NCBI GenBank assembly: GCA_964369035.1
Contig: CAYJDU010000001.1
Location: forward strand, 1 to 32,758
DNA: 32,758 bases
Direction: 5' to 3'
Source: an uncultured Methanomassiliicoccales archaeon
Lineage (GTDB): Archaea; Thermoplasmatota; Thermoplasmata; Methanomassiliicoccales; Methanomethylophilaceae
Under the pieces are notes generated by a model that ran no database searches, was not told the origin of the DNA, and saw only the letters and a list, made by a program, of their open reading frames with translations. Shown piece after piece: positions 4,918 through 27,964 of this stretch (its first letter is position 1; each line of letters opens with the position of its first letter). A program made the position numbers and the translations under genes.

Positions 4918-5172
4918 ATGAAAGCAGCGTATCTGTTGGTATTGTTGTTTACAGTGTTCGCTATAACCGTTGTCGTTATAGCCGATGACGTTGCCGCTGA
5001 GGCTGAGTCGGAACACTTAAACATCGTCGATATGACTCTTTCTGAGATATTCGAATATTACAAACCACTTTATTTTCCAGGACTTTGTCTGACGGTCTCG
5101 GTGTTCTTCTTTTATAAGATTATGAGGTATTCTTTTTTTGATGAGCCTAAGGAGAGGAAGAGATCGCGATGA
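4918..5172 (+). CDS. Small membrane protein with two predicted hydrophobic helices
   Basis: 84 aa. Hydrophobic stretches are AAYLLVLLFTVFAITVVVIA and PGLCLTVSVFFFY, with a basic tail KERKRSR. It overlaps the next gene as ATGA. TTTATAAAAT at 4890-4899 lies about 24 nt upstream of the ATG. Confidence 0.45.
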   Translation: MKAAYLLVLLFTVFAITVVVIADDVAAEAESEHLNIVDMTLSEIFEYYKPLYFPGLCLTVSVFFFYKIMRYSFFDEPKERKRSR

Positions 5173-8425: not shown

Positions 8426-11300
8426 GAGACGCTATTTCTTTATCGGACATAGGTTCGAATTCTACTGTCTCCCCTAGAGATATAAAATCTATGACGCACT
8501 TCACCGGACATTTGTAATATCCTGATACTGCGTTGGCGTAAACACTGAGTTGTAGTCTATACGTATCAACATTATTTTTCGACACATCGGTCTTGTAATC
8601 GTGGACCACAGCGTGGTCGGGATACAATGCCAGAAGATCTATTATCCCTCTTAATGTGACGTTGATGTCGTTAAGAGGTAACGAACAAGGTCTTTCTACG
8701 AGGATCAGGTCTGCGTCCTTCAATGAATCTAAGATATCTCTTATCGCCCTTATCTCCGGGATATTTTCTTCGTTTTCTCGAGGCTCTATACCTCTGGCTA
8801 GTCCTTCGGCTATGGCGTGGACTTTAGTACCGTATTCCATACCCTTGCCGGATATCTCGTCGGAACCTTCTCCCGGTGTTCCGCCTTCGAAGGTCATTAT
8901 ATCGTGTACACCTATTATCCTGCGACGAGGTTTAAATGGTGCCAGGTCAGGTTTGTTCACAACATGCACATAATTTTCTTGTATCGGTGCGATAAGATCG
9001 CCTATGGTGCCCAGATATTCGTTACCGGAAAGTTCTTTTATAAAGTTTGAAGGGCTGTAACTGCAGATCATGGTTACGTATTGTTTCGCTCTAGATATGG
9101 CTACGAATAATGTGCGACGATCTTCACTATAGTCTTTTTCTAAAACTGAACGGACTAGTTCGGTTTTCCAAGAATGGCCGATCCTAAGGAACCCATCCAC
9201 GGATACGATATCCTTTGAACATCTGATTCCCTCTATCTCGTTGAACGAGACATCGGAGAAATCACTCCTATGGTTCGGTATAACCCCTTTGTCCAGTTGA
9301 GGTATTATGACTATGGGATATTCCAGACCTTTGGACTTATGCATGGTCTGTATCAGTACCGCATCGGTATCCAGGTTCGCATCTATGTTGTACGTGTTAT
9401 GTTCTTTGATATCAGTCTCAATTATTCTTATCAGGTCCGATATTGTTAGAAGTGATGAACGATAAGCGGATGATAGGGTCGTTATGATAGCTTGTGTGAT
9501 ATCATTGTTAAGGCCATAATATGTGAAGATCGATGATATCAAGTCGGTAATTCGACGTTTCTTTTTTATGAGTTCCCCTCTTATAGTCAGGATTTCGGAA
9601 GGTACATCAGCGAAATTACCTTTCTTATCAGGGCGTAATATATCGCGTATATCGTTTATGTTATACTCCATGTCTGAAAGTATACCTGCCAGACCCCATG
9701 GGTCACGTTTGTTGTTCAAATATTTCATCCAGGACAGAAGAAGTTTTCCTTCTCGGGCGGACATTATCTCCACGTCTCCTTGAAGGAACGCAGGAATTCC
9801 TCGTCCTGTGGCGTTCTCGTATACTGCACGACACATCTTCCCGTTCTTGCATATAACGGCTATATCGCCATAATTAGGCTCTCTTGGAATGTCCCCGTCG
9901 CATATGACGTAATCCCCAGTGACGTAATCTATGATCCTGGAGACCGTTTCTGCTACTTCGTCCTCCCTTGGGACCTGTACATATCTCACGTGAGTATTAT
10001 CGCCAATCCTCTTATTCCCCGCGGTAAGTTCTATGATAGTTTCTGGATCCAGATGTACGATCTCTTTCTGTGTTCCTGGTATGCTAAGAACACGGAATGA
10101 GGTATCTATAATGGTCTGGGAGCTACGATAGTTCACATTTAATGATAGACGGTTCACACTAGGTATCTTGAACGGCACACGTTCATTGTCGTCATTCAGA
10201 TAACTACGCATGACCACAGCACGTTTTTCAAAATCTGTTATGTTCTCTATGGATACGAACCTGAATCCATATATCCCCTGTTTCCAGTCACCGACGACAC
10301 AGAGATTCGGTTCCTTAAGGAGCATAAGTGAGATCATCATCTGATTCTCATTGGTATCTTGGAATTCGTCGATCATAACGTATCTACAGGACATACGGTC
10401 CCGCACTCCGGCGTTACTATAGAGTATCAAGAAAGCGAATATGGAGGTCAGTCCGAAGGTAAGTCTATCATCAATCACCGAATGGCGTATGAACTCGTAA
10501 TAGACGTCATGGATGAACTCTATGATATCGCTGCGATCCTCGTATGCAGAAGCTTCGAGAACATCTAAGGGAATCTCCACATTATCGCTCACCATCGGGA
10601 AACCTTCGCTGTATAATGATCCCTTATCCATTTTGTCCTGAATCTTCTTTAACGTATCCTTCCTATTCTTGGGATCATTGTTCATCTTTTGAAGGAGTGA
10701 CATTATCTCGTCGGTGTCTCCTAATAGGTCTTTACCATCCCTGCCGCCGAACCAACCCTTCCTTAACGGGACAATACCTTTGGACATGAGTTTACTTATC
10801 AATCCGTATATGTTCGAGGGAATGGTGCTGGCGATGATCGCTATATCCCCATATTCTTCATTGTTATCAGCACTAAACCGATCAAAAAAATCACTGAAAT
10901 ATTCTCTGTTCAGTGTTTCGTTCTCTATCAACGTCGCCCCCCTGGTCAGACGTTCTTTGAAACCGAGAAAATCGCTGACGACCTCAGGCGACTCCTTGAC
11001 AATGGAATAGCAGAAAGAATCGAAGGTTCCCGCCTGCACTAATCGCGTATCTTTCTCTAATTTGCTGGAAGTAAGTTTTTCTCGGATCCGTTCTTCCATC
11101 TCTGCAGCGGCATTTCTTGTGAACGTAAGGAGCAGGACATCCCTGGTCTGTACATCCGGCCTACTTACGATGTTCACATATCTGTTGACTATCGTGAAGG
11201 TCTTTCCCGTTCCAGGTCCTGCGTCTACTACGTAGAAGCCGTCAAGACTTTCTGAGATTCTCTTCTGTGATGGATTAGGTTCACTGGTCATATTCGTCAC
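8409..11300 (-). CDS. AddA-like UvrD/Rep superfamily-1 helicase fused to a C-terminal PD-(D/E)XK (RecB-type) nuclease
   Basis: 963 aa. Helicase motifs: AGPGTGKTFT, TFTRNAAAEM, MIDEFQDTN, VVGDWKQGIYGFR, TMHKSKGLEYPIV, VAISRAKQYV. C-terminal nuclease motifs: GTKVHAIAE ... IIDLL ... VHDYKTD ... RLQLSVYA. Confidence 0.85.
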   Translation of the reverse strand: MTNMTSEPNPSQKRISESLDGFYVVDAGPGTGKTFTIVNRYVNIVSRPDVQTRDVLLLTFTRNAAAEMEERIREKLTSSKLEKDTRLVQAGTFDSFCYSIVKESPEVVSDFLGFKERLTRGATLIENETLNREYFSDFFDRFSADNNEEYGDIAIIASTIPSNIYGLISKLMSKGIVPLRKGWFGGRDGKDLLGDTDEIMSLLQKMNNDPKNRKDTLKKIQDKMDKGSLYSEGFPMVSDNVEIPLDVLEASAYEDRSDIIEFIHDVYYEFIRHSVIDDRLTFGLTSIFAFLILYSNAGVRDRMSCRYVMIDEFQDTNENQMMISLMLLKEPNLCVVGDWKQGIYGFRFVSIENITDFEKRAVVMRSYLNDDNERVPFKIPSVNRLSLNVNYRSSQTIIDTSFRVLSIPGTQKEIVHLDPETIIELTAGNKRIGDNTHVRYVQVPREDEVAETVSRIIDYVTGDYVICDGDIPREPNYGDIAVICKNGKMCRAVYENATGRGIPAFLQGDVEIMSAREGKLLLSWMKYLNNKRDPWGLAGILSDMEYNINDIRDILRPDKKGNFADVPSEILTIRGELIKKKRRITDLISSIFTYYGLNNDITQAIITTLSSAYRSSLLTISDLIRIIETDIKEHNTYNIDANLDTDAVLIQTMHKSKGLEYPIVIIPQLDKGVIPNHRSDFSDVSFNEIEGIRCSKDIVSVDGFLRIGHSWKTELVRSVLEKDYSEDRRTLFVAISRAKQYVTMICSYSPSNFIKELSGNEYLGTIGDLIAPIQENYVHVVNKPDLAPFKPRRRIIGVHDIMTFEGGTPGEGSDEISGKGMEYGTKVHAIAEGLARGIEPRENEENIPEIRAIRDILDSLKDADLILVERPCSLPLNDINVTLRGIIDLLALYPDHAVVHDYKTDVSKNNVDTYRLQLSVYANAVSGYYKCPVKCVIDFISLGETVEFEPMSDKEIASHVQPI

Positions 11301-13977
11301 CTCCTTCTTCTATCGATACAGGTTCACGGGTACAGATCGATATATAATTGCATTTTTCACAATTTTTTATAGGTTTTGCAGGGAATTTTGAATTCATCAT
11401 AATGGAAGCCTCCGAATGATCCCTGTCTAATTTCTCCAGGAACATATCCATAGAATCTGATGGTATCAGGACCGTACCGTTCGATACCCAATAATCTTCT
11501 ACAACGATTTTGAAAAGCTTTTTTAGAGCTCCTATGACCTTGTCCCTTTTACTTTTTAATGGTTTCATATTGAGGGAAAAAAGTATCGCATCAATTAGGG
11601 AATCATTGTTAAACCATTCTTCAGGGGGAAGACCGGAGGCAAATATGGGAGATATAAAAGAATCCCAATCATCATACATTTCTACGTAGGAATCTACGTT
11701 ATTGAAAGATTCTCGGATGGGTGAGTTCTGGCCTCGTATCGCCTCTATCTTGGTCTCCTTTAGTAAATGAACGTCCAATACACTACCTCTGATGGAAGTT
11801 TCATCTTTCACACGTCCGTCCATGCCGAACAGATAAAAGAGGCCGAAAGTTCCATATGCGGAGATCCCGGAATCTCTCATGAGGGCAAGATAAATCAGGG
11901 GTTGTGTCTCGATGTAATTCTTACCGTCCATCTTGAATCCTTTTATGACATCTTTTGCAGTATTGAATTTACCGGTCTTGTAATCAATCACTTGCGAATC
12001 AAGCAGTAGGTCGAACTTGCCGTAGATTGGATGTAGGGGTGAATCCGAATCTCTCTCAACGGAACTACTGGTTTTCTCTAACCCTTCGGCCCTCATCAGT
12101 TCGTTTGGATATTTACGTGAGGAATTATCAACATCAAGAGGTACAGGCCCATCCATTCTCGAGTCTATGAAAACCATAAGGTTCCTGAGCCCTATCCGTA
12201 TACGGTCCAGATCCAAGTCCTCCATCATCGGACAGGATAAGCCTGCATATGTATTTCCGATCCGTTCAACATAATATTCCAGGTCCTTTTCTCTAATAAC
12301 GTTGGGATAACAGACGTACATCTCGGCGAACTCATGCAAAAGGATACCGAAGGCGGTCCGTTCATTATCGGGCGTTGAAACAAGATTGCCGTAATAGAAC
12401 GCCCGAGGGCACATACAATAATCATTGTATGTAGATTTGGTGAATCTCCATTCATTCGATGTATCCTTGTCCAACTGTTCGATGCCTGTCTCAGGGAAGG
12501 ATTGTTGTTCCTCTAGATACCACGACCCTTTCTTCACATCCGCAATATCGTTGAATTTGACAATAGGGCGAGATCTTCTTTCAATTTCGTGAATGCCTTC
12601 AAAAAGTAAAGTCGGTTTTGCGACCTTTCCGTTCTTCGTTGCGTTGACAGCATATATCCTTGAAGAACCCTGTTGGAGCAGTACGCGGAACTTCATGGCA
12701 TCTTTTTCTGCCTCTGATTCCTTATCGATATATTGTTTACCTATGATCTTGTTACCCCATCCGTTCCCCATTCCCAGATAAGCGACGAAAGGCCTATCGA
12801 CGAACATGGATTTTTTACAATCTGCCAACAGAACACCTTTCTTCTCACTTTCTGGTATCTGCTCGTTATGATGAAGTTCGGAGACATTGTTTACAGCATA
12901 GTTCATTTCCCCTACTAGCTGTGGGGTTACCATCTGTTCGTTAAATTTGAGTTCGTCCAATATCATGCGGACCTGAGGCCGGTGACGTTCACGAACCACA
13001 AGGTCGCAGACCTCTTCGAATGTCATCTCTTTGATATCTTTCATACAATTGGCAAGTTCAAGGGCCCTGCCGCCTATATCGGGGAGTCTAGAAAGCAATA
13101 CATTGTCGTGTTTTTGTCGTATGGTGCCACCGTATGCAGAGAAAAGTTCCCTTACATGTCTAACCCTTACAGTTCTATATGATATCCCGAAATTCAAAAA
13201 ACGTAAGAAGTCACGTATCTGCGAAAGATCGCGAACGGTCATAGTGTTCTTGAACGGTATTCCGCGCCTGTATAGGGCGGCACGGACAGCATCGGCTATA
13301 CTGCTTTCAGTATCCATAATTATAGCTATATCTGTGGCTCGTTCAATATCTATCAAGTCTATAACGTTCTCTGCGATCTGTCTATCATTACCTATTTCGT
13401 AAATGGTCTCTATCTCGAATTCTTCTGTTTCGATAATTATTTCGATCTCTTTGTGTTTGATTGGGATGAAGTGTTTATCCAGGTCATCAAAGAATTCTAT
13501 GCCTACGACCGCCGTACTTTTACCAAGGAACATATTCTCGGAAATCACAAATCCTGCTATGCTCTTTTCATGATAGGTCTCGGGTACGAATATGTCCATG
13601 GCCTTCTCGATGGTTGGAAGGACAGAATAGGATTCAAAAACATTTCTCGATAGACGAGAATAAAGGTATTTTTTAACATCCGAAGTATATTTTCTTATGT
13701 TCCTAATATTCTCTATCTCGCCATGGACATACTTGAAACCATAGCCGGTCTCATCAGCAACAGTGGCCACAACTTCCAGGTCGCTCATGAGGGCCCCTCC
13801 GAGAATCTGTACGGAAAGTTCAGCAGCTAGTTGTCTCGGTGTATATGCGAAGCCTCCGACTCTAGGGGTATCTATCCTACCGTTCAGAGCTGTTGCGAGA
13901 GGGGCATCATTTGTTATAACGATGTCAAAATCTCTAACTTCCTGATATATCTCGTCGATACTCTTGGCCCTATACAT
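11281..13977 (-). CDS. AddB-like subunit with a degenerate helicase-like N-terminal region and a Cas4/AddB-type PD-(D/E)XK nuclease carrying a 4-Cys cluster
   Basis: 898 aa with no canonical N-terminal Walker A. Nuclease motifs: LLHEFAE, GKFDLLLDSQVIDYKTGK, QPLIYLA. One Cys lies before the nuclease core (CMCPRAFYYG) and CX2CX5C follows it (CEKCNYISIC, nt 11332-11361), the AddB/Cas4 Fe-S arrangement. It overlaps the downstream AddA-like gene by 20 nt. Confidence 0.75.
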   Translation of the reverse strand: MYRAKSIDEIYQEVRDFDIVITNDAPLATALNGRIDTPRVGGFAYTPRQLAAELSVQILGGALMSDLEVVATVADETGYGFKYVHGEIENIRNIRKYTSDVKKYLYSRLSRNVFESYSVLPTIEKAMDIFVPETYHEKSIAGFVISENMFLGKSTAVVGIEFFDDLDKHFIPIKHKEIEIIIETEEFEIETIYEIGNDRQIAENVIDLIDIERATDIAIIMDTESSIADAVRAALYRRGIPFKNTMTVRDLSQIRDFLRFLNFGISYRTVRVRHVRELFSAYGGTIRQKHDNVLLSRLPDIGGRALELANCMKDIKEMTFEEVCDLVVRERHRPQVRMILDELKFNEQMVTPQLVGEMNYAVNNVSELHHNEQIPESEKKGVLLADCKKSMFVDRPFVAYLGMGNGWGNKIIGKQYIDKESEAEKDAMKFRVLLQQGSSRIYAVNATKNGKVAKPTLLFEGIHEIERRSRPIVKFNDIADVKKGSWYLEEQQSFPETGIEQLDKDTSNEWRFTKSTYNDYCMCPRAFYYGNLVSTPDNERTAFGILLHEFAEMYVCYPNVIREKDLEYYVERIGNTYAGLSCPMMEDLDLDRIRIGLRNLMVFIDSRMDGPVPLDVDNSSRKYPNELMRAEGLEKTSSSVERDSDSPLHPIYGKFDLLLDSQVIDYKTGKFNTAKDVIKGFKMDGKNYIETQPLIYLALMRDSGISAYGTFGLFYLFGMDGRVKDETSIRGSVLDVHLLKETKIEAIRGQNSPIRESFNNVDSYVEMYDDWDSFISPIFASGLPPEEWFNNDSLIDAILFSLNMKPLKSKRDKVIGALKKLFKIVVEDYWVSNGTVLIPSDSMDMFLEKLDRDHSEASIMMNSKFPAKPIKNCEKCNYISICTREPVSIEEGGDEYDQ

Positions 13978-14043: not shown

Positions 14044-14634
14044 GTGGCATTATCTATCATCCTTAACGTTCAAAGTTATGTGAAGGATATGTATGTGATC
14101 GAGGTCAACGCCGATGGCGACAAAGGTTATCCTGACAATATTGTGGTGGAGGTCGGGGTCTGTAAAGTTGATTTGGACCGTATGGATTTCGACTCGATCT
14201 ATAGCGACATAATAGTACTAGATCCGTTGAACATGGGAAAGACATCTTTAGATTGGCTCACAGATACTGCCGGTATAGATGTCCGCGAGCTTTATATGGG
14301 GTTACCACAAGAGGAGGTGGTTTCTAATGTTAAAAAGTTACTTAAAGGGAACGAAGTGGCTTGTTTTGACATAGGTGAGACATTTGGAAGATTCCTTTTA
14401 TTCGAACCTTGGGATTTCACTAAGGAAATGACGATCATGTCCTCTGTCTCATCTAGGATGCCTAGGAATGCATCCCCGATTCTGAAAACTAACTTACAGG
14501 GACGCATCGGATATGCTTACGCTAAGTTATGTCCTGATGACCCTGCAGATGTAGGGGACGGGCGTAGAGCACTTCAATTGGCACAGATGACATCCGAGAT
14601 AACAATCCGACTTCGTAAGAGCGGGCTGTATTAG
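14044..14634 (+). CDS. Catalytically degenerate paralogue of the DEDDh exonuclease at 5169-5786
   Basis: 196 aa with clear paralogy: DMYVIEVNADGDKGYPDNIVVEVGVCKVD vs DIYVLDTETTGLKGAPEDVIVDIGVCKVD, and FEPWDF vs REPWNM. All DEDDh residues are replaced: DTE to EVN (nt 14101-14109), YNTDYD to FDIGET, HRALSD to RRALQL. The track start is GTG 14044; the in-frame ATG 14089 is an alternative. Confidence 0.65.
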   Translation: MALSIILNVQSYVKDMYVIEVNADGDKGYPDNIVVEVGVCKVDLDRMDFDSIYSDIIVLDPLNMGKTSLDWLTDTAGIDVRELYMGLPQEEVVSNVKKLLKGNEVACFDIGETFGRFLLFEPWDFTKEMTIMSSVSSRMPRNASPILKTNLQGRIGYAYAKLCPDDPADVGDGRRALQLAQMTSEITIRLRKSGLY

Positions 14635-15068
14635 ACTCTGAAAAACTTAAGTACTGAACCGAAACGTGTTTCGACTAATTGTGCCAGATAAGACGATATG
14701 TAAACTACAGCAAGAATTATAACTGCAAAAACAAGGATTACCTTGGTAAATGAACCCACAGAATTTCCCCAGTCTATGCACAGGTACATCGACATGAACA
14801 ACATGGCCCCGATGATAAGGAAATACCAACCTTTGCTTTCTTTATGATTTAGATATATCAACCCAAGTCCTTGTAACCCGAATATCCCTGGTATCACTGC
14901 CAACAAAGTAGCGAACAACATGTTTTTTTTGGGCACTTCACGATTTACGGACCCAGTTGTTTTTCTCTCAGGTATATCGTCCCTAGGGACCGGACCATAA
15001 CATTTAGGGCAGGTCACACTATTGGACGGTACTAGCTCGTTACAGTTTGGACATCTTTTACTGCTCAT
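14631..15068 (-). CDS. Zinc-ribbon membrane protein
   Basis: CPNCNELVPSNSVTCPKC, followed by three hydrophobic segments. I prefer ATG 15068-15066 (MSSKRCPNC), which forms an ATGA overlap with the PaaI stop, over the track start at 15098. Confidence 0.6.
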   Translation of the reverse strand: MSSKRCPNCNELVPSNSVTCPKCYGPVPRDDIPERKTTGSVNREVPKKNMLFATLLAVIPGIFGLQGLGLIYLNHKESKGWYFLIIGAMLFMSMYLCIDWGNSVGSFTKVILVFAVIILAVVYISSYLAQLVETRFGSVLKFFRV

Positions 15069-15499
15069 TCTCTCACCTTGATTTTGAAACCAGTGCATAC
15101 TGCCGAAGCGACCAGTTCATCCTTATTGTAAACTTTCACGTCATAATTAGAGATTGAACGGGACTCGTTTATGAGTACAGCCTCGGCTCTCAGTAGACCG
15201 TCCTTAACGGTACGGTGATAGTGGACGTTAACAGACTGGCCCACTGAATCTCTTTCGATATTGGAAGCCACTCCAAAGGCGTGGTCTATCAACGCATAAG
15301 TGGCTGCGCCATGTACAACACCCAGGCTGTTAAGTATCCCTGGCCGTACTGACATCTCAGCTATCGTCTTTTCTTTTGAAACTAGGACAGTGGTGATCCC
15401 CACTTCTTTTGCGAAAGGCGCATCGGACATGAATCTGATCCTGTCCACGTTGGACCGACTATCTTCATCGATAATTGAAAGTAGCTCGTTTTGGTCCAT
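15065..15499 (-). CDS. PaaI-family hotdog-fold thioesterase
   Basis: 144 aa, with a size and core motif typical of PaaI/YdiI-type thioesterases: NSLGVVHGAATYALIDHAFGVA. TTAAATA on the minus strand (about 15520-15527) lies about 25 nt upstream of the ATG. Confidence 0.8.
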   Translation of the reverse strand: MDQNELLSIIDEDSRSNVDRIRFMSDAPFAKEVGITTVLVSKEKTIAEMSVRPGILNSLGVVHGAATYALIDHAFGVASNIERDSVGQSVNVHYHRTVKDGLLRAEAVLINESRSISNYDVKVYNKDELVASAVCTGFKIKVRE

Positions 15500-15564: not shown

Positions 15565-16920
15565 ATGGGCGCCTTTGTATTGAACATGGCCGAGAGTCTA
15601 ACGGTAACACAACTTAACACGAGGGTTCGGTCCATACTCTCTGAATCTTCGTCGGTAAAGGATATCTGGGTCATAGGAGAGATATCCAATCTTAAGTGCT
15701 ATGCGAGCGGTCATTATTATTTCACTCTTAAGGACGAAGGAAGTGAGATCCGATCCGTAATGTTCAAAAATTCCCGAGGGCGTATCGATTTTGAACCTGA
15801 AGAGAACATGAAGGTCAAGGCCTTCGGACGTGTGGACCTCTACGTACAGAGGGGAAGCTATCAGTTCATAGTGGAGACCATGCAACGCTCTGGCATAGGC
15901 AATTTATTCTTGGAATATGAGAAACTCAGGAAGAAGTTGGAATCGGAAGGGCTCTTTGAGATATCCCGTAAAAGAAGTCTTCCCATCTATCCGAAGACCA
16001 TAGGGGTGGTCACATCAGAAAGCGGGGCGGTTATCCATGACATTGTATCCACAACGGGTAAGTTGTTTCCTGTAAATATTTTACTGGCACCTGCACAGGT
16101 ACAGGGGGATGGTGCAGCGGCCTCCATAGTAAGAGGTATAGAGTTATTGAACCGTGAGAACGTGGACGTCATAATAGTCGGAAGAGGGGGAGGATCCATC
16201 GAAGACCTTTGGGCGTTCAACGAAGAGATCGTCGCTAGAGCTATAGTGGCATCAAAAGTACCGATAATATCTGCTGTAGGTCACGAATCCGATCTCACAA
16301 TAGCTGATTTCGTTGCTGATGTCAGAGCACCGACTCCTACAGGAGCGGCGGAACTCGCACTTCGTGATAAAAGAGAGGTAATCAAGCAAATAGACGGAAT
16401 CGGGATCAGGGCCAACAGAGCTTTGGTCCACGTTACAAAGTTGATGCATTCCCGCATGGACTTGATGTCATCTAAATTGAATCCAGTCAGACAATATGAA
16501 AGACTGGCTATGTTAGAGATACGGACGGGACAGCTTTCTGACCGTGCCGATTCGGCTCTAAGGTCCTCGGTGCAGATAATGAGGTCCCGCTTCAACGCGA
16601 TAGGATCGAAAATATCTCCTGTCGCCGCGATGCGTAATGTAGTATCCTTGAAGGAGAACATCAATTCCATATCTGGACGTCTGACGATGGCTATGGACCG
16701 CCGTATCAGGGACGCCTCATCAAAAATAGATTCCTTGCAAAAGAGATCGGAGGCCCTCAACCCATTGGGGGTCCTAGAGAGAGGTTATAGCTACGTCACG
16801 GATTCTGAAGGAAGGACCTTAACATCCGCAAAGGCCTTGTTAGAAGGATCTATCATCGATGTCAGATTCCGGGACGGCAGTGCTGAGGCAGAAGTAAAAA
16901 AGGTGAAGAACAATGAATGA
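15565..16920 (+). CDS. xseA: Exodeoxyribonuclease VII large subunit
   Basis: 451 aa. The N-terminal OB-fold signature is LTVTQLNTRVRSIL...IWVIGEISNLK...SGHYYFTLKD. The catalytic core has GVVTSESGAVIHDI, IIVGRGGGSIEDLWAFNEE and SAVGHESD, followed by a long helical tail. An alternative leaderless start at ATG 15586 has AAATTAAA (15554-15561) about 28 nt upstream. Confidence 0.9.
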   Translation: MGAFVLNMAESLTVTQLNTRVRSILSESSSVKDIWVIGEISNLKCYASGHYYFTLKDEGSEIRSVMFKNSRGRIDFEPEENMKVKAFGRVDLYVQRGSYQFIVETMQRSGIGNLFLEYEKLRKKLESEGLFEISRKRSLPIYPKTIGVVTSESGAVIHDIVSTTGKLFPVNILLAPAQVQGDGAAASIVRGIELLNRENVDVIIVGRGGGSIEDLWAFNEEIVARAIVASKVPIISAVGHESDLTIADFVADVRAPTPTGAAELALRDKREVIKQIDGIGIRANRALVHVTKLMHSRMDLMSSKLNPVRQYERLAMLEIRTGQLSDRADSALRSSVQIMRSRFNAIGSKISPVAAMRNVVSLKENINSISGRLTMAMDRRIRDASSKIDSLQKRSEALNPLGVLERGYSYVTDSEGRTLTSAKALLEGSIIDVRFRDGSAEAEVKKVKNNE

Positions 16921-17146
16921 AGACATAGAGAAGATGAGTTTTGAGGAATCGATATCGGCCCTTGAAGAGATTGTGAAAAAGCTTGAGGACGGAACACTTG
17001 ATCTCGATGAGAGTCTTGTAGTGTACGAACGTGCCACTGTTCTCAGGGACCGTTGTAAGAAGATCCTGGAGGAGAGCGAACGCAGAGTACAGAAGATAAC
17101 CGAGACCTCTCAAGGTGTCGTAAGGTCAGAGATGAAGGTTGAGTGA
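16913..17146 (+). CDS. xseB: Exodeoxyribonuclease VII small subunit
   Basis: 77 aa. MSFEESISALEEIVKKLEDGTLDLDESLVVYERA is the XseB helical-hairpin signature. It overlaps xseA by 8 nt. Confidence 0.85.
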   Translation: MNEDIEKMSFEESISALEEIVKKLEDGTLDLDESLVVYERATVLRDRCKKILEESERRVQKITETSQGVVRSEMKVE

Positions 17147-17992
17147 CCATAGTTTGAAACATTTCTTTTTGGCCCACTTATCAGTGTCCCCATAAAGATT
17201 GGTGTTCGCGAAGTAATGGTCGTTGAAAGCTAGCCTTAGCGATCCAGAGAGTTCACCACTTCTTATGGTCTTACAATTAAAGGAACCGAAGTTGCATCTC
17301 AATCCGACTAGCAATACATCTACTGCATCATGGCCTCGAGCATAATCTTCGGGGTTATGTCCCTTAGAACTCTCTACCAATAGAATATCTAAAAGTTTCT
17401 TCTTGTTGATGCGTGGGTTGGTAGTGCAGCTCACAATATCATCAATCAGTCTTTTTTTATCGATTCGGAGACTTCTCTGATCGATAAAATTGTCAAAATT
17501 CAAGTTTTTAAAACATAAGCTCAGTCTATGTTCCTCGGAAATGTGCATCAACAATCCGATAGGGTAACAGGCCGATATAACCGCATCGAACACAGGACCG
17601 TATTTATTTCTAAAAGCTTCCAGGGCCTCTGTGTCTGCATACTCGCTAAGAACATCGCCGAGCGCAGGACTGGACATCATCATAATCTCAAGATCCCGAT
17701 AATCTGTCTGGAATATAGGTGGAGTACGTTTCCTGCCCTGGATCCTATCTAGGTCCGCATCTACTATACCTACGACAGAAGTTATTTTACGATTGTGCCA
17801 GCATTCATCTACCGCTTTTCGAACGTTGCTCTTCGAATGGCCGATGACCACTTTCACTTTGTCATTATCGCTGAACTTACTGTAAAGTCGACTGTCAGTT
17901 ATGCCTTCTACTACCAATACCGTGTCTTTGCCGGAGGATGCCAGCATCGATATCTCATTCGCAATATCCGTCGGTGTCAGTGAGTTCCGCAT
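17126..17992 (-). CDS. DUF4435/Toprim-like putative nuclease (AriB-like effector of a PARIS-type pair)
   Basis: 288 aa with the acidic Toprim constellation in DUF4435 order: VLVVEGITDSRLY (Glu29), GIVDADLD (DxD, aa 78-82), TDYRDLE. It lies immediately downstream of an ABC ATPase gene and overlaps it by 38 nt. An alternative start at Met16 (17947) would remove the overlap. Confidence 0.7.
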   Translation of the reverse strand: MRNSLTPTDIANEISMLASSGKDTVLVVEGITDSRLYSKFSDNDKVKVVIGHSKSNVRKAVDECWHNRKITSVVGIVDADLDRIQGRKRTPPIFQTDYRDLEIMMMSSPALGDVLSEYADTEALEAFRNKYGPVFDAVISACYPIGLLMHISEEHRLSLCFKNLNFDNFIDQRSLRIDKKRLIDDIVSCTTNPRINKKKLLDILLVESSKGHNPEDYARGHDAVDVLLVGLRCNFGSFNCKTIRSGELSGSLRLAFNDHYFANTNLYGDTDKWAKKKCFKLWSLNLHL

Positions 17993-19025
17993 TTATATCC
18001 CTCAGTTCTCTTGCCATATCCCACTTGTCGTGGATTATTTGAGGGGAATGGGTTGCAACCACGAACTGCAGATTTCTCAGCCTTGCAATATCTAAGAATG
18101 TGCCACTCAGTTTTTGCTGCCATTCGATATGTAGTGAATTCTCTGGTTCGTCTATGATGACGATGGAACCTTCCGCGGTTTGAAAAAGTAGGCGATACAT
18201 GATTATGACAATATTCTTCTCGCCAGATGAGAGTGCGTTAAGTGGTAGGTCTTCTCCAGTATCTAATCTAAAAACAAGATTATTCTTCTCGTTGATCATT
18301 ATTGTCTTTCTGTAGAACATTTCGTTCAATATATCCTGGAAAACAACGATAGATTCCGATAATTGATATGACCTTTTTATGTAATCATCGAGGCCGAACG
18401 CCAGATCCTGATATTCCTCCCTCTTTTTAGAAAGGTCACTGTGACTAGGCGGAAAACGTAGGGATGAAGGGGAATCAGGCTCCAATCCCGCTTCTTTCAT
18501 AAAGTCCAGTTTGGCCTTTAGGTCTTTAAATAAGAATACGAGCTCCCCGTCCGATAGGTCGGGGCGTTGTCCTTTTTTGGGTTTTGCAAGTTCGCTGTTT
18601 TCCTTCGCATATCTTATGCGGTCTCTGAGCTCTGTCGCATACACGATAACTGCGGGGACCAGATGTCCGTCCCCTCTTTTCACGGTCTGCCTCTCAGGTG
18701 GAATGTATGTGATTTGGAAAAGTCTGCGGAGCTCTGCCTCGTCTATAGGCTGTTCCAGTTCGTTCTTTTGTATCTGCACTTTAAGCTCTTCGTAATTCTC
18801 TACGATAAGGTTGACATCGCTGGTGTAATTGACGTCCATCCTATTGAATGGCAGGTTCTTTAAGACCTCGAACTCCCCTTTCATGGCCGAGACGAGAGCT
18901 CTAAGGGTCGTTGATTTTCCAAAACCGTTCCTAGAATATATGAAAGTAAGAGGGCCCGGACTAAAATCTAAATTGCAATCGCAGTGATGCAACAGTCCGT
19001 AAATAGTTATTGACTTGATCTTCAT
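17955..19025 (-). CDS. ABC/OLD-type AAA ATPase (AriA-like sensor/scaffold of a PARIS-type pair)
   Basis: 356 aa. Walker A is SRNGFGKST (nt 18909-18935), the signature-like motif is LSSGEKN, Walker B/D-loop is IVIIDEPENSLH, and the H-loop is VVATHSP. TAAAATATA on the minus strand (19048-19056) is centred 27 nt upstream of the ATG. Confidence 0.75.
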   Translation of the reverse strand: MKIKSITIYGLLHHCDCNLDFSPGPLTFIYSRNGFGKSTTLRALVSAMKGEFEVLKNLPFNRMDVNYTSDVNLIVENYEELKVQIQKNELEQPIDEAELRRLFQITYIPPERQTVKRGDGHLVPAVIVYATELRDRIRYAKENSELAKPKKGQRPDLSDGELVFLFKDLKAKLDFMKEAGLEPDSPSSLRFPPSHSDLSKKREEYQDLAFGLDDYIKRSYQLSESIVVFQDILNEMFYRKTIMINEKNNLVFRLDTGEDLPLNALSSGEKNIVIIMYRLLFQTAEGSIVIIDEPENSLHIEWQQKLSGTFLDIARLRNLQFVVATHSPQIIHDKWDMARELRDINAELTDTDGYCE

Positions 19026-19117
19026 CTTACATCTGAATGTTCATAAGTATATTTTAAGTGCACTATGCCCGTTCGAAGGGGCTATCTTTATTTTCATGTA
19101 ACAACTCTAGCGATTCA

Positions 19118-19966
19118 ATGGAAGATAAAAACGTGTTCTTGGAGGTCAGGAAAGTGATCGCTACAGGGCAGATAGATTTGGCCGAGACGATGCTCAGGGA
19201 TATCGCATTCTCCTCGAATGACCCGTTCTCACGGATACAATGTGCATCTACTTTGTTGGTCATAGGAAGGGGCGTGGCGTCGGAAGACGTCCTTTACGAT
19301 CTTTATGAGGACCTTTCAGATCATGATGGTGACATATTCCCTATCGCTCAGGCGATGAGAGGACTTGGAAGGGCGGATCTGGCCGTAGAATTACTGGCAG
19401 ATATAGAAAAGAGTGACCATGTTCTTAGGGAATATGCACTCTCACTCAATATGATCGGTCGTTTCTCTGATTCTGTAGATATCATAAACAAAATCGGGAC
19501 TTTGAGTCTTTCGGATAAGGTATTAGCTGTCGATTCACTCAGCTCTTTGGGCAGGTCCGAAGAGGCGATGAAGGTATCCGACACCTTATATCGTGAGGCG
19601 CCCGAGAATTATGGTGTACTACGTTCAAGATGTGCGGTACTGATATCCGCAGGAAGGGACAAGGAAGCAGTGAAGTTCGTACGTGGTCTTCTAAAGGCTG
19701 ACAAGAATTCGGCCAATGCCAATGCTGCAACAGCTTACGTCATGCATGTGATAGGTAACACTAAACCGGCTGGTGCGTTCTCTTCTAAGGCACTACGTAC
19801 GGACCCCTCCCATATTGGCGCCATGGAAATATTGGCGCTAAGCTTGATGGAAAAGGGCAAGTTTAGGGACGCAAGTATAGTTGCAGGGGCCATGAACGAG
19901 AAAGAGCCGGGAAATCCCGCTGCCGTCAGAATATTGAAGGAATGCGGCGGAAGGATGGATCAGTAA
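19118..19966 (+). CDS. TPR-like helical repeat protein
   Basis: Repeated ~34-aa amphipathic helix pairs rich in A/L/G (e.g. AQAMRGLGRADLAVELL, AVDSLSSLGRSEEAMKV, ALSLMEKGKFRDASIV). I prefer ATG 19118, which has TTTATTTT (19087-19094) about 27 nt upstream, over the track GTG start at 19058. Confidence 0.55.
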   Translation: MEDKNVFLEVRKVIATGQIDLAETMLRDIAFSSNDPFSRIQCASTLLVIGRGVASEDVLYDLYEDLSDHDGDIFPIAQAMRGLGRADLAVELLADIEKSDHVLREYALSLNMIGRFSDSVDIINKIGTLSLSDKVLAVDSLSSLGRSEEAMKVSDTLYREAPENYGVLRSRCAVLISAGRDKEAVKFVRGLLKADKNSANANAATAYVMHVIGNTKPAGAFSSKALRTDPSHIGAMEILALSLMEKGKFRDASIVAGAMNEKEPGNPAAVRILKECGGRMDQ

Positions 19967-23105: not shown

Positions 23106-24362
23106 ATGTGGAAACATGTTAGCGAGGATTTCTGGAAAGAGAACCGCGCATCCAAAGTCGGCGATGTTACGGACGTGGTCCGCGAAATAATAGAGGATGT
23201 CCGTGTGAACGGGGATAAGGCACTGTTGGAACTTACAAAAAAGTTCGACAAGCAGGATCTAAAATACTTAGAGGTGACCCGTGATGAGATCGAGGACGCA
23301 TACGACATGATCGATCAAGAGCTTATCGATGAGCTTGAGAACGCGGCATATAATATTCAGCGTTTCCACGAGATGCAGGTACCTCCAGATATGTGGCTCA
23401 GAGAAGTGGAGCCCGGTGTAACGTTAGGGGTGAAGAGTACTCCTCTTGAGACCGTAGGTTGTTACGTCCCTGGAGGTCGTGCATCCTATCCCAGTACCGC
23501 TCTAATGTGCATAATACCTGCAAATGTTGCTGGTGTGGAAGAAATAATCTGTTGTACTCCTGCCCCGGTCAACCCAGCTACGTTGGTGGCTATGGATATC
23601 GCTGGTGCGGACTCGATATACAAACTGGGCGGGGCCCAAGCCATCGCCGCGATGGCGTTAGGCACAAAAAGCATCCCCAAGGTGCAAAAGATAGTAGGTC
23701 CTGGTAACGTTTATGTAACTTCAGCAAAAATGATGTTACGTGATGTAGTCGAGATAGATTTCCCTGCAGGACCAAGTGAGATTGGCGTCCTCGCGGATTC
23801 ATCTGTGAATTGTGAATTCATTGCGGCCGATCTTATAGCACAAGCCGAGCACGACCCATCATCTGCCAGTATATTGATAACCGACAATCCTGATCTTCCA
23901 GGTAAAATATGGTCATTTATGGAGAAGATGATCGATAGGCAGCCTAGAAAGGAAATAATACTGAAGGCGTTGAATAATTCTGGATATATCGTGGCGGCGG
24001 ACATGGACCTAGCTATAGAGAGCATGAACCGTATAGCACCGGAACACCTTTCGATACAGACCGTGAATCCTATGGACACATTGTCTAAGATCAAAAACGC
24101 CGGTTCGATCTTCATCGGTCCTTATACCCCGGTAGCCGCTGGAGATTATGCTTCGGGGACCAACCATGTACTTCCTACAGCTGGTAGTTCGTCAACAGCA
24201 TCTGGCCTGAATGTAGCACATTTCCGTAAGACCTCAACGGTCCAGATGTTGACCCGTGATGGATTGCAGACTATCGCACTCACTATAGAGACAATCTCAA
24301 CATCCGAAGGGCTACATGCTCATTGCGATTCTGTCAGGGTGCGTTTCGACGATGAGGAGTAA
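23106..24362 (+). CDS. hisD: Histidinol dehydrogenase
   Basis: 418 aa with KLGGAQAIAAMALGT, KIVGPGNVYVTSAK, IDFPAGPSEIGVLAD and AADLIAQAEHD. Confidence 0.92.
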   Translation: MWKHVSEDFWKENRASKVGDVTDVVREIIEDVRVNGDKALLELTKKFDKQDLKYLEVTRDEIEDAYDMIDQELIDELENAAYNIQRFHEMQVPPDMWLREVEPGVTLGVKSTPLETVGCYVPGGRASYPSTALMCIIPANVAGVEEIICCTPAPVNPATLVAMDIAGADSIYKLGGAQAIAAMALGTKSIPKVQKIVGPGNVYVTSAKMMLRDVVEIDFPAGPSEIGVLADSSVNCEFIAADLIAQAEHDPSSASILITDNPDLPGKIWSFMEKMIDRQPRKEIILKALNNSGYIVAADMDLAIESMNRIAPEHLSIQTVNPMDTLSKIKNAGSIFIGPYTPVAAGDYASGTNHVLPTAGSSSTASGLNVAHFRKTSTVQMLTRDGLQTIALTIETISTSEGLHAHCDSVRVRFDDEE

Positions 24363-24366
24363 GAGC

Positions 24367-26439
24367 ATGAAGGAGCGCATAGACCTCTACGACCCTAATC
24401 TGTATATCAATCGTGAACTTTCTTGGTTAGAGTTTAACCGTAGATGTCTACAGGAGGCCAATGACGACAGCGTCCCTTTACTTGAGCGTCTGAAGTTCCT
24501 TGCGATATGTTATGGGAACATGGACGAGTTCTTCATGATTCGTGTTCCAGGTATAATCAACGGGATAGCTGCGGGAGCCCCTATATTGGACGCCCCGGAC
24601 ATAGATCACAATAATTTTCGACTCCTATCGAACATTAATATCAAAGTTCGAGATCTTTTAAACGGATATACCGAGTGCTGGGATAATTTAAGGGCATCGC
24701 TCTTTGAAGGGGGGATACATATGCTCATGTTCGACGATCTAACAAAAAATCAGGTCGAGGTCATAGATAATTTCTATGACGAACGTATACACCCATTACT
24801 TACGCCTCTGGCCCTTGATACATCCCATCCTTTTCCCTTCATATCCAATAACACGTTAAGTCTGGCCACTAAGATGAAGAATTCTAAAGGTCAGAATATG
24901 TACGCAAGGATAAAGATCCCTTTAGGTGCCTTCGATCGATTCATACGCATCCCTTCTGAATCATCAGCAATGAATTATGTCCTGTTGGAGGACATCGTAC
25001 GTCATAATGTGCATAAACTGTTCCCTGGCTTCAATATCGAGGGTGTTTACGCTTTCAGGGTCACAAGGAACGCGGACACGAAAGTGATGATAGATGAAGC
25101 ATGTGATCTCATGTCCGCGGTGGAGGAATCAGTCGAGGGGCGAGGTACAGGATTCCCCGTTAGGATGGTCACGGAATCTGCGATGCCTGATGACATGGTG
25201 GAGATCTTCGGTAAGAACCTCTCACTTACGCCAGAACAGATACACAGGTCCGATTCGCCGTTGATGTTGAACAGTCTTTGGGAACTTTATGATCTGAACT
25301 TACCTGAATTAAAGGAAGTGGGTTTCAAACCTCACTGTCCTCCTGAACTAGCCGAGGACAAATCGATATTCGAGGCTATGGCGAAAAAGGACTGGTTGTT
25401 ATACCATCCTTACGAATCCTTCGGGATAATAGTTAGGTTCTTACAAGAGGCGGCCCACGACCCTCAAGTGAAAAGCATTAAGATATGCCTTTACAGAATC
25501 GGGAAGGATCCCTCTATAATTCAGGCCCTTACGTATGCTAGAGAGCAGGGTAAGACGGTATCTGTGCTAATGGAGATCCGAGCTAAATTCGATGAGACCA
25601 ACAACATAAAGTTGGCCAAGGGCCTGGAGCAGATGGGTATCCACGTGGTCTTCGGTCCGGTGGAGCTTAAAGTACACTCCAAACTTTTACAGGCCGTTCG
25701 TCTGGAGGATGGACATCTTGTCAGGTATACGCACATGAGCTCCGGTAACTATAACGTAAGTTCTGCGAAACAGTACGCGGACATATCGTTTTTAACTGTA
25801 AATAATGAGATAGGTGAGGAAGTAGGGGAGTTATTCAATTCGTTAACCGGTTATTTTGGTCCAAGGGATTACAAAAAACTGTTGGTCTCTCCTTTAACGT
25901 TGAAAAGTTCCCTGTTGAAGATGATCGACGATGAGATAGGACACATGGAAAAGAACGGTCACGGATATATCGCCATGAAGGCCAATGGGCTGATAGATGC
26001 CGATGTGATCTCCAGCCTTTACAAAGCATCCATCGCTGGTGTGAAGATTGATCTTAACATCCGTGGCCTTTGTTGCCTACGTCCAGGAATTCCCGGGGTT
26101 TCAGAAAACATCCGCGTTGTGCGTGTAGTGGATATGTTCCTTGAACACGCCCGGATCTATTATTTCGAGAACGGTGGTGACCCTAAGATGTATATGGGTT
26201 CGTCGGACATCATGCCTAGGAATCTAATCGCAAGGGTTGAGACGTTATTCCCTATCCTTGACAAAGATATGCTCATATCAGTCAGGGATACCATCCTAAA
26301 GATCCATCTTTCGGATAATGTAAAAGCTAGCGAACTAACCGCGGACGGGACCTATGTACCCGTGGTCAGAAATAAGGGTGAACCTAAGATAAGGTCCCAA
26401 CAGTGGCTGATAGAGAATAGGGGGTGCTGGCACGGTTGA
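24367..26439 (+). CDS. ppk: Polyphosphate kinase 1
   Basis: YINRELSWLEFNRRCLQEA is the N-domain signature. There are two PLD-like His motifs (KVHSKLLQ, FLEHARIYYF). I prefer ATG 24367 (MKERIDLYDP...), which has GAGGAG 10-15 nt upstream, over the track start at 24316, which overlaps hisD. Confidence 0.92.
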   Translation: MKERIDLYDPNLYINRELSWLEFNRRCLQEANDDSVPLLERLKFLAICYGNMDEFFMIRVPGIINGIAAGAPILDAPDIDHNNFRLLSNINIKVRDLLNGYTECWDNLRASLFEGGIHMLMFDDLTKNQVEVIDNFYDERIHPLLTPLALDTSHPFPFISNNTLSLATKMKNSKGQNMYARIKIPLGAFDRFIRIPSESSAMNYVLLEDIVRHNVHKLFPGFNIEGVYAFRVTRNADTKVMIDEACDLMSAVEESVEGRGTGFPVRMVTESAMPDDMVEIFGKNLSLTPEQIHRSDSPLMLNSLWELYDLNLPELKEVGFKPHCPPELAEDKSIFEAMAKKDWLLYHPYESFGIIVRFLQEAAHDPQVKSIKICLYRIGKDPSIIQALTYAREQGKTVSVLMEIRAKFDETNNIKLAKGLEQMGIHVVFGPVELKVHSKLLQAVRLEDGHLVRYTHMSSGNYNVSSAKQYADISFLTVNNEIGEEVGELFNSLTGYFGPRDYKKLLVSPLTLKSSLLKMIDDEIGHMEKNGHGYIAMKANGLIDADVISSLYKASIAGVKIDLNIRGLCCLRPGIPGVSENIRVVRVVDMFLEHARIYYFENGGDPKMYMGSSDIMPRNLIARVETLFPILDKDMLISVRDTILKIHLSDNVKASELTADGTYVPVVRNKGEPKIRSQQWLIENRGCWHG

Positions 26440-27964
26440 AGACAAAATAGTAGGGTTCATAGACGTTGGTACTAACTCTATACATGTGTTAGTATCAAAA
26501 TTCTTTCCAGATGCACTAGGCACTCCGATATTTCATGATAAAGAATCCGTAAGGCTTGGTCAGAACCTGTTCTCCCAGGGATTCATAGACGAGGAGACCA
26601 TCAATAAGACGAAGCTCGTCGTAGGACATTTTGTCCGTGTGGCACAAGATATGGGAGCTAAAGAGATATTGGCATACGCAACTTGTGCTGCGAGAGAGGC
26701 GTTCAATAGGGACGCAATCCTTGATGCTGTTTCAGAATCCGGCATAGACCTGAAGATAATCTCAGGTAAAGAAGAAGCAAGGTTGGTAGGGCTTGGGGTG
26801 TTCGGTCCCTATGGACCACCGGACCGTTGTGTTCTCATCGACCTTGGCGGTGGCAGTACGGAAATAAACCTTACAAAGGGTAATGAGATTTTGTTACTTG
26901 ACAGCCTCAAGGCTGGTTCCATTCGTTTTTCATATGGACTTGGGATAGATCAACACGCTCGTGTATCAAAGTCAGACTACGATTTGATGCTTAAGGAAGT
27001 GGATAAGATTTCAAAGAACACAGCGAAGGAGCTTAACGAGGTGGGCTTTGACCGTGCGATTGGTTCTTCTGGAACGATTATAAATCTGGCTGAGATGTGT
27101 GCCGCCCGTAGGGACGGAGATTCCTCATACATGACCAAGAAAGAGCTTTCCGAGCTTATGAGGGACCTGTGCGGGATGACAGAGGACCAACGCCGCAACG
27201 TACCAAAAATGAATCAAGGACGTTCGGATATAATCATAGGCGGGGGAGCCATCGCTGAACAGCTGATGGACTCATTCGAGATTGACAAGATCTTCATAAG
27301 TGATCAGGGTCTCCGTGAGGGGATGCAGGTGGATTACCTGCTTGGACGCGGTCATAAAGAATTCAACCTGAGGAATTCATCCATATTGACACTGGCTAGA
27401 AGGTGCGGATCCAATGAGACCCATTCTGCACAGGTAAAGATCCTGGCATTACGATTATTTGACGGGTTAAAAAAGGCAGGCCTTCACATTATGGACGACG
27501 ATACAAAGGAAATCCTTGGATACGCTGCGATATTGCATGATATCGGTGAGTTCATAAGTTACAAAGATCACAATCTACATACGTATACGATCATCACAAA
27601 CTCCAATATGCCAGGCTTTAATGCAGATGAGATAGAGGACATGGCACTCATGGCGAAGTTTCATCACAAACGGTTCCCAGCAGGCACTAATAAGTTTCTC
27701 AGACCCTTAAATAAAAATCGTGCCAAGAATGTCAGGATGTGTGCTCTGATGCTTAGGATGGCAGATGTCCTCGATAGACACAGGTCGTCACCAGTGGAAG
27801 ATATGAACGGACGTTTGACAAAGAACAGCGTGATCATAGAACTAACATCAAAAGAGGACCTTAGCATGGAAGTATGGAAGATGGAAGAGCTCTCAGATGC
27901 CTTTAAGGACGTTTTTGGCTTAGACCTGAAGATATGTGCTTCAGGATGGGGAGATGAGATTTAG
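26436..27964 (+). CDS. ppx: Ppx/GppA-family exopolyphosphatase with C-terminal HD domain; the 5' end needs a frame change or a non-canonical start
   Basis: The ASKHA phosphate-1 loop IVGFIDVGTNSIHVLV (26447-26494) is in frame with the 492-aa track ORF but largely upstream of its first canonical start (GTG 26486). TTG 26436 (TTGA overlap with the ppk stop) opens MKTK-stop in the adjacent frame. The HD motif is ILHDIGEFISYKDH. See findings. Confidence 0.85.

Follow-up and report, generated by a model that had tools for sequence, protein, structure and literature searches.

PARIS is a recently solved model of immunity, in which the sensing of a viral protein leads to the destruction of tRNA, and it is regarded as a mobile bacterial system. 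The subject of the present analysis is a pair of overlapping genes from an archaeon, encoding a compact ATP-binding cassette (ABC) ATPase and a DUF4435/Toprim nuclease, for which the closest relatives by sequence, by profile and by structure are AriA and AriB, respectively the ATPase and the nuclease of PARIS. The pair lies in a stretch of 32,758 nt from contig CAYJDU010000001.1 (assembly GCA_964369035.1, an uncultured Methanomassiliicoccales archaeon of the family Methanomethylophilaceae), referred to below as the window. Nothing of relevance to PARIS in Methanomassiliicoccales emerged from a search of the literature.

In PARIS itself, AriA and AriB form a 6:3 complex from which AriB is released by a viral trigger to cleave tRNA; within AriA, the insertion IS1 (residues 122–180) serves in trigger recognition and IS2 (residues 242–289) in assembly of the hexamer (PMC11464382). 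The ariAB genes have been detected in bacterial and archaeal genomes alike (Rousset et al.). The other system of particular relevance is Cran1, a protein of OLD class 5 from Sulfolobales that has an essential role in the cell cycle and no apparent antiviral effect; it is vertically conserved throughout its order, a pattern from which a non-defence role had been predicted (PMC12796447). In the dataset of that same paper, OLD class 3 and class 4, the latter corresponding to PARIS, were confined to bacteria.

What is new at the present locus is that a PARIS-type pair should be archaeal, compact and vertically fixed, a pattern that is unexpected for a system of this type. The pair is a core gene pair, inherited vertically at a fixed locus and under purifying selection, and it is this evolutionary behaviour that provides the decisive evidence in the analysis; the patchy, horizontally transferred distribution on satellites, phages or defence islands that characterises defence systems was not found. 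The reading that we tentatively favour, while judging that it falls just short of an even chance of being right, is that the pair represents a PARIS-homologous, ATPase-gated Toprim nuclease that the Methanomethylophilaceae have retained as a fixed core operon, with a conserved cellular role. The features of the pair are as follows (the coordinates of the ATPase motifs having been checked):

17955..19025, minus strand: gene for the compact AriA-like ABC ATPase, an open reading frame (ORF) of 356 aa
18906-18938, minus strand: Walker A motif of the ATPase (YSRNGFGKSTT)
18216-18236, minus strand: signature motif LSSGE of the ATPase (LSSGEK)
18129-18164, minus strand: Walker B motif of the ATPase (IVIIDEPENSLH)
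18042-18062, minus strand: H-loop of the ATPase (VVATHSP)
17126..17992, minus strand: gene for the DUF4435/Toprim nuclease, an ORF of 288 aa
17903-17914, minus strand: E29 of the nuclease (VVEG)
17747-17767, minus strand: D78xD80 of the nuclease (IVDADLD)
17687-17707, minus strand: D100/E102 of the nuclease (TDYRDLE)
17327-17338, minus strand: RGHD of the nuclease
17955..17992, minus strand: overlap of 38 nt between the 3' end of the ATPase gene and the 5' end of the nuclease gene

An earlier reading of this DNA (here called the original prediction) had taken these two genes for a PARIS-like pair in an unusual, acquired defence island. All of the motifs that it quoted for the two proteins are present where it placed them, the ORFs are as it described, and so are the 38-nt overlap, the overlap of 21 nt with xseB and the gap of 92 nt to a tetratricopeptide repeat (TPR) gene. 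To judge from the sequence, both motif sets are complete, comprising in the ATPase the Walker A, signature, Walker B and H-loop elements of an ABC ATPase, and in the nuclease the catalytic Glu, the DxD and the further Asp/Glu pair of a Toprim domain. The overlap suggests that the two genes are co-transcribed and translationally coupled; in orthologous loci they overlap by 4–38 nt or are separated by at most 5 nt.

In the case of the ATPase the best matches, both by sequence and by fold, are to AriA. Its Pfam matches are to AAA_15 (4e-24, 86.3 bits) and AAA_21 (2.5e-17, 64.3 bits), its best PADLOC match is to AriA (7.8e-29, ahead of PtuA, with values down to 1.2e-24, and of AbiLi, 1.6e-14), and its top sequence match in the PDB is again AriA (8ux9/8v45, 9e-16). 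When the archaeal ATPase family profile was compared using hhalign with AriA of E. coli B185 (the sequence of which was reconstructed from alignments), the result was a full-length match with a probability of 99.7% and an E-value of 1.2e-26. Fold searches, which for both proteins start from AlphaFold2 (AF2) models, give the same answer: for the ATPase (mean predicted local distance difference test score, pLDDT, 90.8) the top 16 Foldseek matches are all AriA chains, with E ~1e-19 and template modelling (TM) scores of ~0.6, and PtuA (E ~1e-13) and Rad50 (E ~1e-12) trail these by some six orders of magnitude. Residues G34, G36, K37, S266, G268, E269, D292, E293 and H326 are invariant in 42 ATPase orthologues.

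The nuclease is more distant from its PARIS counterpart. It matches Pfam DUF4435 (1.3e-9, 38.6 bits) and the PADLOC AriB model (6.9e-17), so that the profile matches foreseen by the original prediction, for both proteins, proved significant; AriB did not appear in PDB sequence searches with the nuclease, either as a single sequence or as a profile, and an hhalign comparison of the nuclease family with B185 AriB was not significant (E 0.011). The AF2 model of the nuclease (pLDDT 93.8) has just two Foldseek matches with E at or below 1e-3, and both of these are AriB (8ux9_A and 8v46_D, E 3.4e-6, TM 0.56/0.53, full length). Weak matches to other Toprim proteins were found for 1t6t (by sequence profile) and for 2fcj and 6p74 (by fold search). 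All 51 of the nuclease sequences compared share E29, D78, D80, D100, E102, G220, D222 and R253. A number of the archaeal DUF4435 gene calls run to 397–412 aa as compared with ~288 aa (P0038, P0070 and the P0085 cluster), and these may be either N-terminally extended calls or true extensions into the overlap with the ATPase gene.

Taken as a pair, the two genes pass the PARIS detection rule of Rousset et al. (2022), which sets minimum scores of 32 bits for AAA_15 or 27 bits for AAA_21, and of 27 bits for DUF4435 in the adjoining gene; the corresponding scores here are 86.3, 64.3 and 38.6 bits, and the genes overlap. The homology to PARIS that the original prediction proposed for an ATPase with a DUF4435 partner therefore stands, as does the archaeal host context that it recognised: NreA and DUF2124 are both encoded in the window, and the named close homologues are all from Methanomethylophilaceae or other Methanomassiliicoccales.

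The evidence that the locus is fixed comes from several sources. Relatives of the nuclease at 40–89% identity form about 90 clusters, and all of those for which a source is named belong to the Methanomassiliicoccales, mainly to the Methanomethylophilaceae; bacterial relatives begin only at 34% identity or below. In a neighbour-joining tree the archaeal clade is monophyletic; Methanomethylophilus alvi and Ca. Methanomethylophilus sp. 1R26 are among its members. Every archaeal locus that was anchored on the nuclease (L001, L002/3, L004, L005, L007, L130 and L131/132, at 40–89% identity) has the same gene order, namely TrkA-TrkH, the TPR gene, ATPase-DUF4435 and then xseB-xseA, and in each locus of sufficient length the pair adjoins xseB either directly or after a short insertion (L007, L113-L116). 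A less biased test was provided by 37 loci from JGI metagenomes anchored instead on the TPR gene (a less independent anchor, being the immediate neighbour of the pair). The ATPase gene lies just upstream of the TPR gene in 26 of these; a further 10 are uninformative, as the contig ends either at the TPR gene or within an inserted gene, and one lacks the pair beside the TPR gene, so that 26 of the 27 informative loci carry it. Apparent absences in L110, L112, L119 and L120 were discounted, as these contigs end inside inserts that in longer relatives precede the ATPase gene.

The manner of inheritance can be judged from divergence and from selection. Pairwise divergence of the ATPase and of the nuclease correlates with that of XseA, TrkA and TrkH with Mantel r values of 0.94–0.96 (16–17 loci), and the housekeeping genes correlate with one another no more closely than this (r 0.92–0.95); the rate of divergence of the pair equals that of TrkA. 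In comparison with the close relative L130, the ratio of nonsynonymous to synonymous divergence (dN/dS) has values of 0.050 (ATPase) and 0.096 (nuclease), against 0.020–0.074 for the neighbouring genes at similar dS. Among IMG/VR viral contigs there was a single match to the DUF4435 family profile, at 26% identity (L128:6004-6801), and no close relatives of the archaeal clade were found there.

The composition of the pair agrees with this picture. According to the original prediction the pair had a G+C content of about 37%, set against 50% or more in its neighbours, but the pair actually has 43.4%, where the window as a whole has 44.7% and the flanking genes have 45.8%; of the 31 lines of 60 nt in the pair no more than 4 have a G+C content of 37% or less, and such lines are present in the neighbours too. 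Both codon usage and G+C at third codon positions (GC3) lie inside the range of the neighbouring genes. The notion of a low-G+C island was accordingly rejected, and the composition of the pair is native. With no anomaly of composition, the same locus in all of the relatives examined, congruent divergence and purifying selection, the acquired defence island also falls; indeed a conserved locus with native composition at the xseB/TPR junction, which is what was found as far as sampling extends, is the outcome that the original prediction had itself named as counting against it and as indicating a housekeeping role. Overall, the observation that it made is largely confirmed, its claim as to composition is refuted, and its interpretation is partly supported.

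The same data on selection bear upon the suggestion that the pair might be an addiction module of toxin-antitoxin type, in which the nuclease would be the toxin and the ATPase the antitoxin, so that loss would be deleterious even though the cell would gain no benefit. Such a scheme would fit the tight overlap of the genes, the labelling of AriA in the PDB as 'AriA antitoxin', and the toxin-antitoxin-like character of PARIS, in which AriB alone is only mildly toxic (PMC11464382). However, it would leave unexplained both the housekeeping-level purifying selection on the two proteins, the active site of the nuclease included, and the fixed single locus devoid of mobility, given that selfish modules normally move and decay, and we consider it improbable.

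A further distinctive property is the compactness of the ATPase, which the original prediction had correctly noticed. The archaeal ATPase has 356 aa as compared with 464 aa in AriA, and nearly all of the difference lies in the region between the two lobes, which comprises 119 aa rather than 226 aa (~107 aa fewer). This deficit equals the summed length of IS1 and IS2; the proposition that exactly these two elements are missing was nevertheless not demonstrated, as the gaps in the hhalign alignment are scattered over AriA residues 84-186 and 240-320, where the alignment is of low confidence and unreliable. The compaction is specific to the archaeal clade, because the ATPases of the nearest bacterial relatives have 415–451 aa and retain an insert of AriA length. 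The shortened inter-lobe region is as strongly conserved as the ATP-binding lobes, with residues 161-180 among the best-conserved blocks of the protein, and this differs from what would be expected of a sensor engaged in an arms race with viral triggers.

It is at this point that the most serious rival needs to be weighed, namely that the pair is a canonical abortive-infection system of PARIS type that happens to be fixed. On this account the ATPase would sense a protein from a virus of the Methanomethylophilaceae (for instance an anti-restriction DNA mimic) and free the nuclease, which would cleave host tRNA and so arrest translation, the whole being kept family-wide because viral pressure is constant. 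The detection rule and the PADLOC AriA and AriB models both point this way, the fold searches rank AriA and AriB first, both proteins have an intact active site, and archaeal ariAB genes are on record (Rousset et al.). Against this, strict vertical inheritance at one locus, a housekeeping-like rate and native composition are all atypical for defence, the region corresponding to the trigger sensor of AriA is shortened, and is conserved rather than variable, and close relatives were not found on the viral contigs of IMG/VR. We regard the antiviral account as a genuine possibility that is more doubtful than a conserved cellular role, the latter being slightly the likelier of the two.

There are several caveats that weigh against that preference. 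The closest characterised relatives of the pair are all antiviral; the nearest bacterial relatives occur in the variable contexts typical of defence genes, and related families are found in phages (PHROG matches). In some lineages the genes inserted beside the fixed pair encode phage-defence candidates, of the PADLOC classes PDC-S01 and PDC-S02, and this constitutes a weak defence-island signal. One locus (L100:1-2135) extends for 2.1 kb upstream of the TPR gene and lacks the pair, and is thus the sole possible absence. It must also be remembered that presence and absence were scored on contigs from metagenomes, with an adjacent gene as the anchor, rather than in complete genomes, and that immunity hard-wired throughout a lineage would be compatible with conservation alone.

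If the pair does have a conserved cellular role, its homology to PARIS suggests how it would work. The two genes would constitute one operon encoding a split machine of OLD class 4 type, made up of an AriA/Rad50-like ABC ATPase and a DUF4435 Toprim nuclease. An oligomer of the ATPase would bind the nuclease and hold it inactive; recognition of a signal in an ATP-dependent manner would then release or activate the nuclease, and once freed this would cut nucleic acid, which in E. coli PARIS is tRNA. Complex formation, its stoichiometry, gating, the substrate, the trigger and the biological role are all carried over in this way from the characterised system, and we infer them on that footing, whereas the homology, the intact active sites, the fixation, the vertical inheritance and the purifying selection are what the data show. 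The module would have arrived just one time, in the common ancestor of the family, and would thereafter have been passed on vertically in its place between TrkAH-TPR and xseBA. That the sensor region is both shortened and conserved, and that the pair is vertically fixed, argue for a conserved and probably endogenous signal and for a cellular function; by comparison with Cran1, the role might then lie in nucleic-acid surveillance or stress. In its fullest form, this would make the pair a PARIS-type module domesticated in the Methanomethylophilaceae as an ATP-gated Toprim nuclease that surveys RNA/tRNA or DNA in response to an endogenous signal, a proposal plausible enough to merit consideration but held still more tentatively than the cellular role as such.

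The genes and intervals that immediately adjoin the pair are:

16913..17146, plus strand: xseB, for the small subunit of exonuclease VII (Pfam Exonuc_VII_S, 7e-17), a convergent neighbour
19026..19117, no strand assigned: divergent intergenic region of 92 nt between the ATPase and TPR genes, its sequence read directly
19118..19966, plus strand: divergent gene for a TPR protein of 282 aa, counted from the ATG (Pfam TPR_19, 2.3e-11)

The nuclease gene and xseB converge, their 3' ends overlapping by 21 nt; xseB serves as a marker of the conserved boundary of the locus, any functional link to the pair being only putative. In the divergent intergenic region there are A/T-rich, TATA-like boxes some 25–35 nt 5' of the ATG of the ATPase gene and likewise of that of the TPR gene, which may be regarded as putative promoters. 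No integrase or transposase gene was found in the window, in line with the original prediction that mobile-element genes were lacking; Rfam and tRNA scans of the window also found nothing, and neither a retron reverse transcriptase nor a non-coding RNA lies near the pair.

The adjacency to xseB raises the possibility of a DNA-repair factor, in which the pair, exonuclease VII (xseAB) and an AddAB-like helicase-nuclease encoded further along would cooperate on DNA ends or adducts. In archaeal loci the pair adjoins xseB as described above, the window is rich in repair nucleases (AddAB-like, RNase T-like, Mre11-like and NreA), the ATPase resembles Rad50, and in Tumebacillus permanentifrigoris, the source of the nearest bacterial homologue (L006:4743-9874), the pair is situated within a cluster for non-homologous end joining (NHEJ), with Ku and LigD ligase on one side and LigD Prim-Pol on the other. 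But xseB is convergent and so outside the operon of the pair, the AddAB-like genes are not linked to it in L001, L005 or L007, AriA is a better Foldseek match than Rad50 by about six orders of magnitude, and conserved adjacency can reflect inherited synteny with no functional link. As to the NHEJ cluster, it is treated as a one-off because the three other bacterial sister loci have unrelated contexts with no repair genes, and a connection with NHEJ or DNA repair was kept only as a rival of low probability; of all the explanations discussed here we consider repair the least likely, marginally below even the addiction module.

As regards the repair and nuclease genes themselves, of which there are unusually many here, those in the window (711-1898, 5169-5786, 8409-13977, 15565-17146 and 29655-30932) comprise a Mre11-like metallophosphoesterase, an RNase T-like exonuclease, an AddA/AddB-like pair, xseA/xseB and the archaeal NreA. 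The AddA/AddB-like pair (963 and 898 aa) combines a UvrD helicase with a PD-(D/E)XK nuclease, and is linked to the locus in L002/3 and L004. XseA (window 15565-16920) shows 51–77% identity within the family; among the matches listed (loci L011-L090) it also aligns along its entire length, at ~40% identity, with XseA of numerous bacterial phyla, a result that would fit a bacterial source for the xseAB genes of this lineage. Two small conserved genes (14044-14634 and 14631-15098) separate the AddB-like gene from a thioesterase gene; one encodes a protein of 196 aa with no Pfam match (a similarly placed gene for a protein of 188 aa in L004 has a weak RNase_T match), and the other a protein of 155 aa in which an N-terminal zinc ribbon precedes a hydrophobic segment that probably spans the membrane. 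Further along the window (23106-27964), there is an overlap of 47 nt (24316-24362) between hisD and ppk1, and after ppk1 comes a gene for a Ppx/GppA phosphatase with an HD domain, forming a polyphosphate kinase/phosphatase pair that adjoins the Trk potassium-uptake genes.

On the other side of the pair, the original prediction had suggested that the TPR gene might provide a third component, and this was not supported. Orthologues of the TPR protein are present in all of the archaeal loci, at 32–63% identity; the gene is faster-evolving, separable from the pair by inserted genes in several lineages and absent from the bacterial sister loci, and PADLOC gave no match for it to any defence model. 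The TPR protein is probably a co-conserved neighbour, and is unlikely to be a component of the system. In L100 a gene for a VCA0040-like (undecaprenyl-phosphate translocase-like) membrane protein stands beside the TPR gene in the place of the pair.

The junction between the TPR and ATPase genes carries insertions in L007, L099, L109, L113-118, L121, L124 and L131, and is a small insertion hotspot in relatives (L099:3654-4934, L007:3094-4476, L110:36-1079, L121, L124:916-1176). The inserted genes include AAA_14/DUF4143 (PADLOC PDC-S01, 9e-56) and YhcG/DUF1016 (PDC-S02, 7e-144), and a small ORF in L124 has, by eye, the look of a ribbon-helix-helix antitoxin. In L007 the adjacent junction between TrkH and the TPR gene also takes insertions, and xseB is separated from the nuclease gene by a methyltransferase gene.

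In the Methanomethylophilus lineage a gene for a protein of ~460 aa is co-directional with the ATPase gene and lies ~60 nt upstream of it, resulting in an array of three genes. Its occurrences are:

L131:4533-5912, plus strand: gene for the ~460-aa protein
L007:5499-6857: gene for the ~460-aa protein
L113:8560-9951, minus strand: gene for the ~460-aa protein
L118:2327-3739, minus strand: gene for the ~460-aa protein

Partial copies are present in L112, L119 and L120, and the locus in the window does not have this gene. The N-terminus of the encoded protein is zinc-ribbon-like (DPYRGTNPWSLARYLRNSC.RCPVC), and no Pfam or PADLOC match was obtained; it may be an added component within that subclade.

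The significance of these findings is that a compact homologue of PARIS is a core gene pair across a gut-methanogen family to which the human-associated Methanomethylophilus alvi belongs. If the pair still acts as an immune system, it would be a rare archaeal instance of abortive-infection immunity that is hard-wired and non-mobile, and the truncated sensor could help to reveal which parts AriA requires in order to sense. Should the pair have been co-opted instead, it would add to the evidence from Cran1 that defence-like ATPase-nucleases can be recruited to housekeeping, and would imply that PADLOC/DefenseFinder annotation over-calls immunity in these archaea; domestication, if true, would make this the second OLD-family 'defence' machine in archaeal housekeeping after Cran1, and the first that is split and PARIS-like. 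The pair is small and lends itself well to biochemical work, and the competing readings are directly testable.

It remains to compare the pair with the known systems that it resembles. Rad50/SbcC proteins share the fold of the ABC ATPase and a helical insertion between its lobes, but the present ATPase has only a very short helical insert, a match to the zinc hook was not seen, the partner is a Toprim protein rather than Mre11/SbcD, and AriA is much the better match. PtuA, found in Septu and in retron I-A effectors, is second to AriA in the fold search, and many PtuA models match the C-terminal lobe of the ATPase; its partner, however, is the HNH protein PtuB, whereas the partner here is Toprim/DUF4435, with no HNH match in Pfam or PADLOC. 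AbiL of Lactococcus (AbiLi/AbiLii) offers the same abortive-infection layout of two genes, one for an ATPase and the other for a Toprim-like protein, and had been put forward in the original prediction as the alternative assignment; AbiLi does match the ATPase, though far more weakly than AriA does, and AbiL is the weaker assignment because no AbiLii PADLOC model matches the nuclease at E values of up to 0.1.

Cran1 resembles the pair in being archaeal OLD-family ATPase/Toprim machinery that is vertically conserved throughout a taxon at a conserved locus, and it is by this pattern of conservation alone that the two may be likened. In other respects they differ, as Cran1 is a fused single polypeptide from another OLD clade, in an operon with a membrane protein, while the present pair is split (class 4-like), belongs to another archaeal phylum and has no membrane-protein partner.

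With PARIS itself (E. coli B185, OLD class 4) the pair shares the order of ATPase and then nuclease, the overlap of the two genes, an AAA_15/AAA_21 ABC ATPase that is homologous to AriA along its whole length, and a DUF4435 partner that is predicted, from its model, to have an AriB-like fold over its full length (TM ~0.55). The catalytic Glu of the VEG motif (E29 here, E26 in AriB) is common to both, as is an RGH(D/T) motif that was spotted by eye. The differences are that the host is archaeal, that the ATPase is ~107 residues shorter between its lobes, across the IS1 and coiled-coil/IS2 regions, and that the nuclease is only 13–14% identical to AriB, having DxD and RDLE where AriB has DRE and HSLE; PARIS is carried on satellites, phages and plasmids, whereas the present pair is fixed in its place and vertically inherited.

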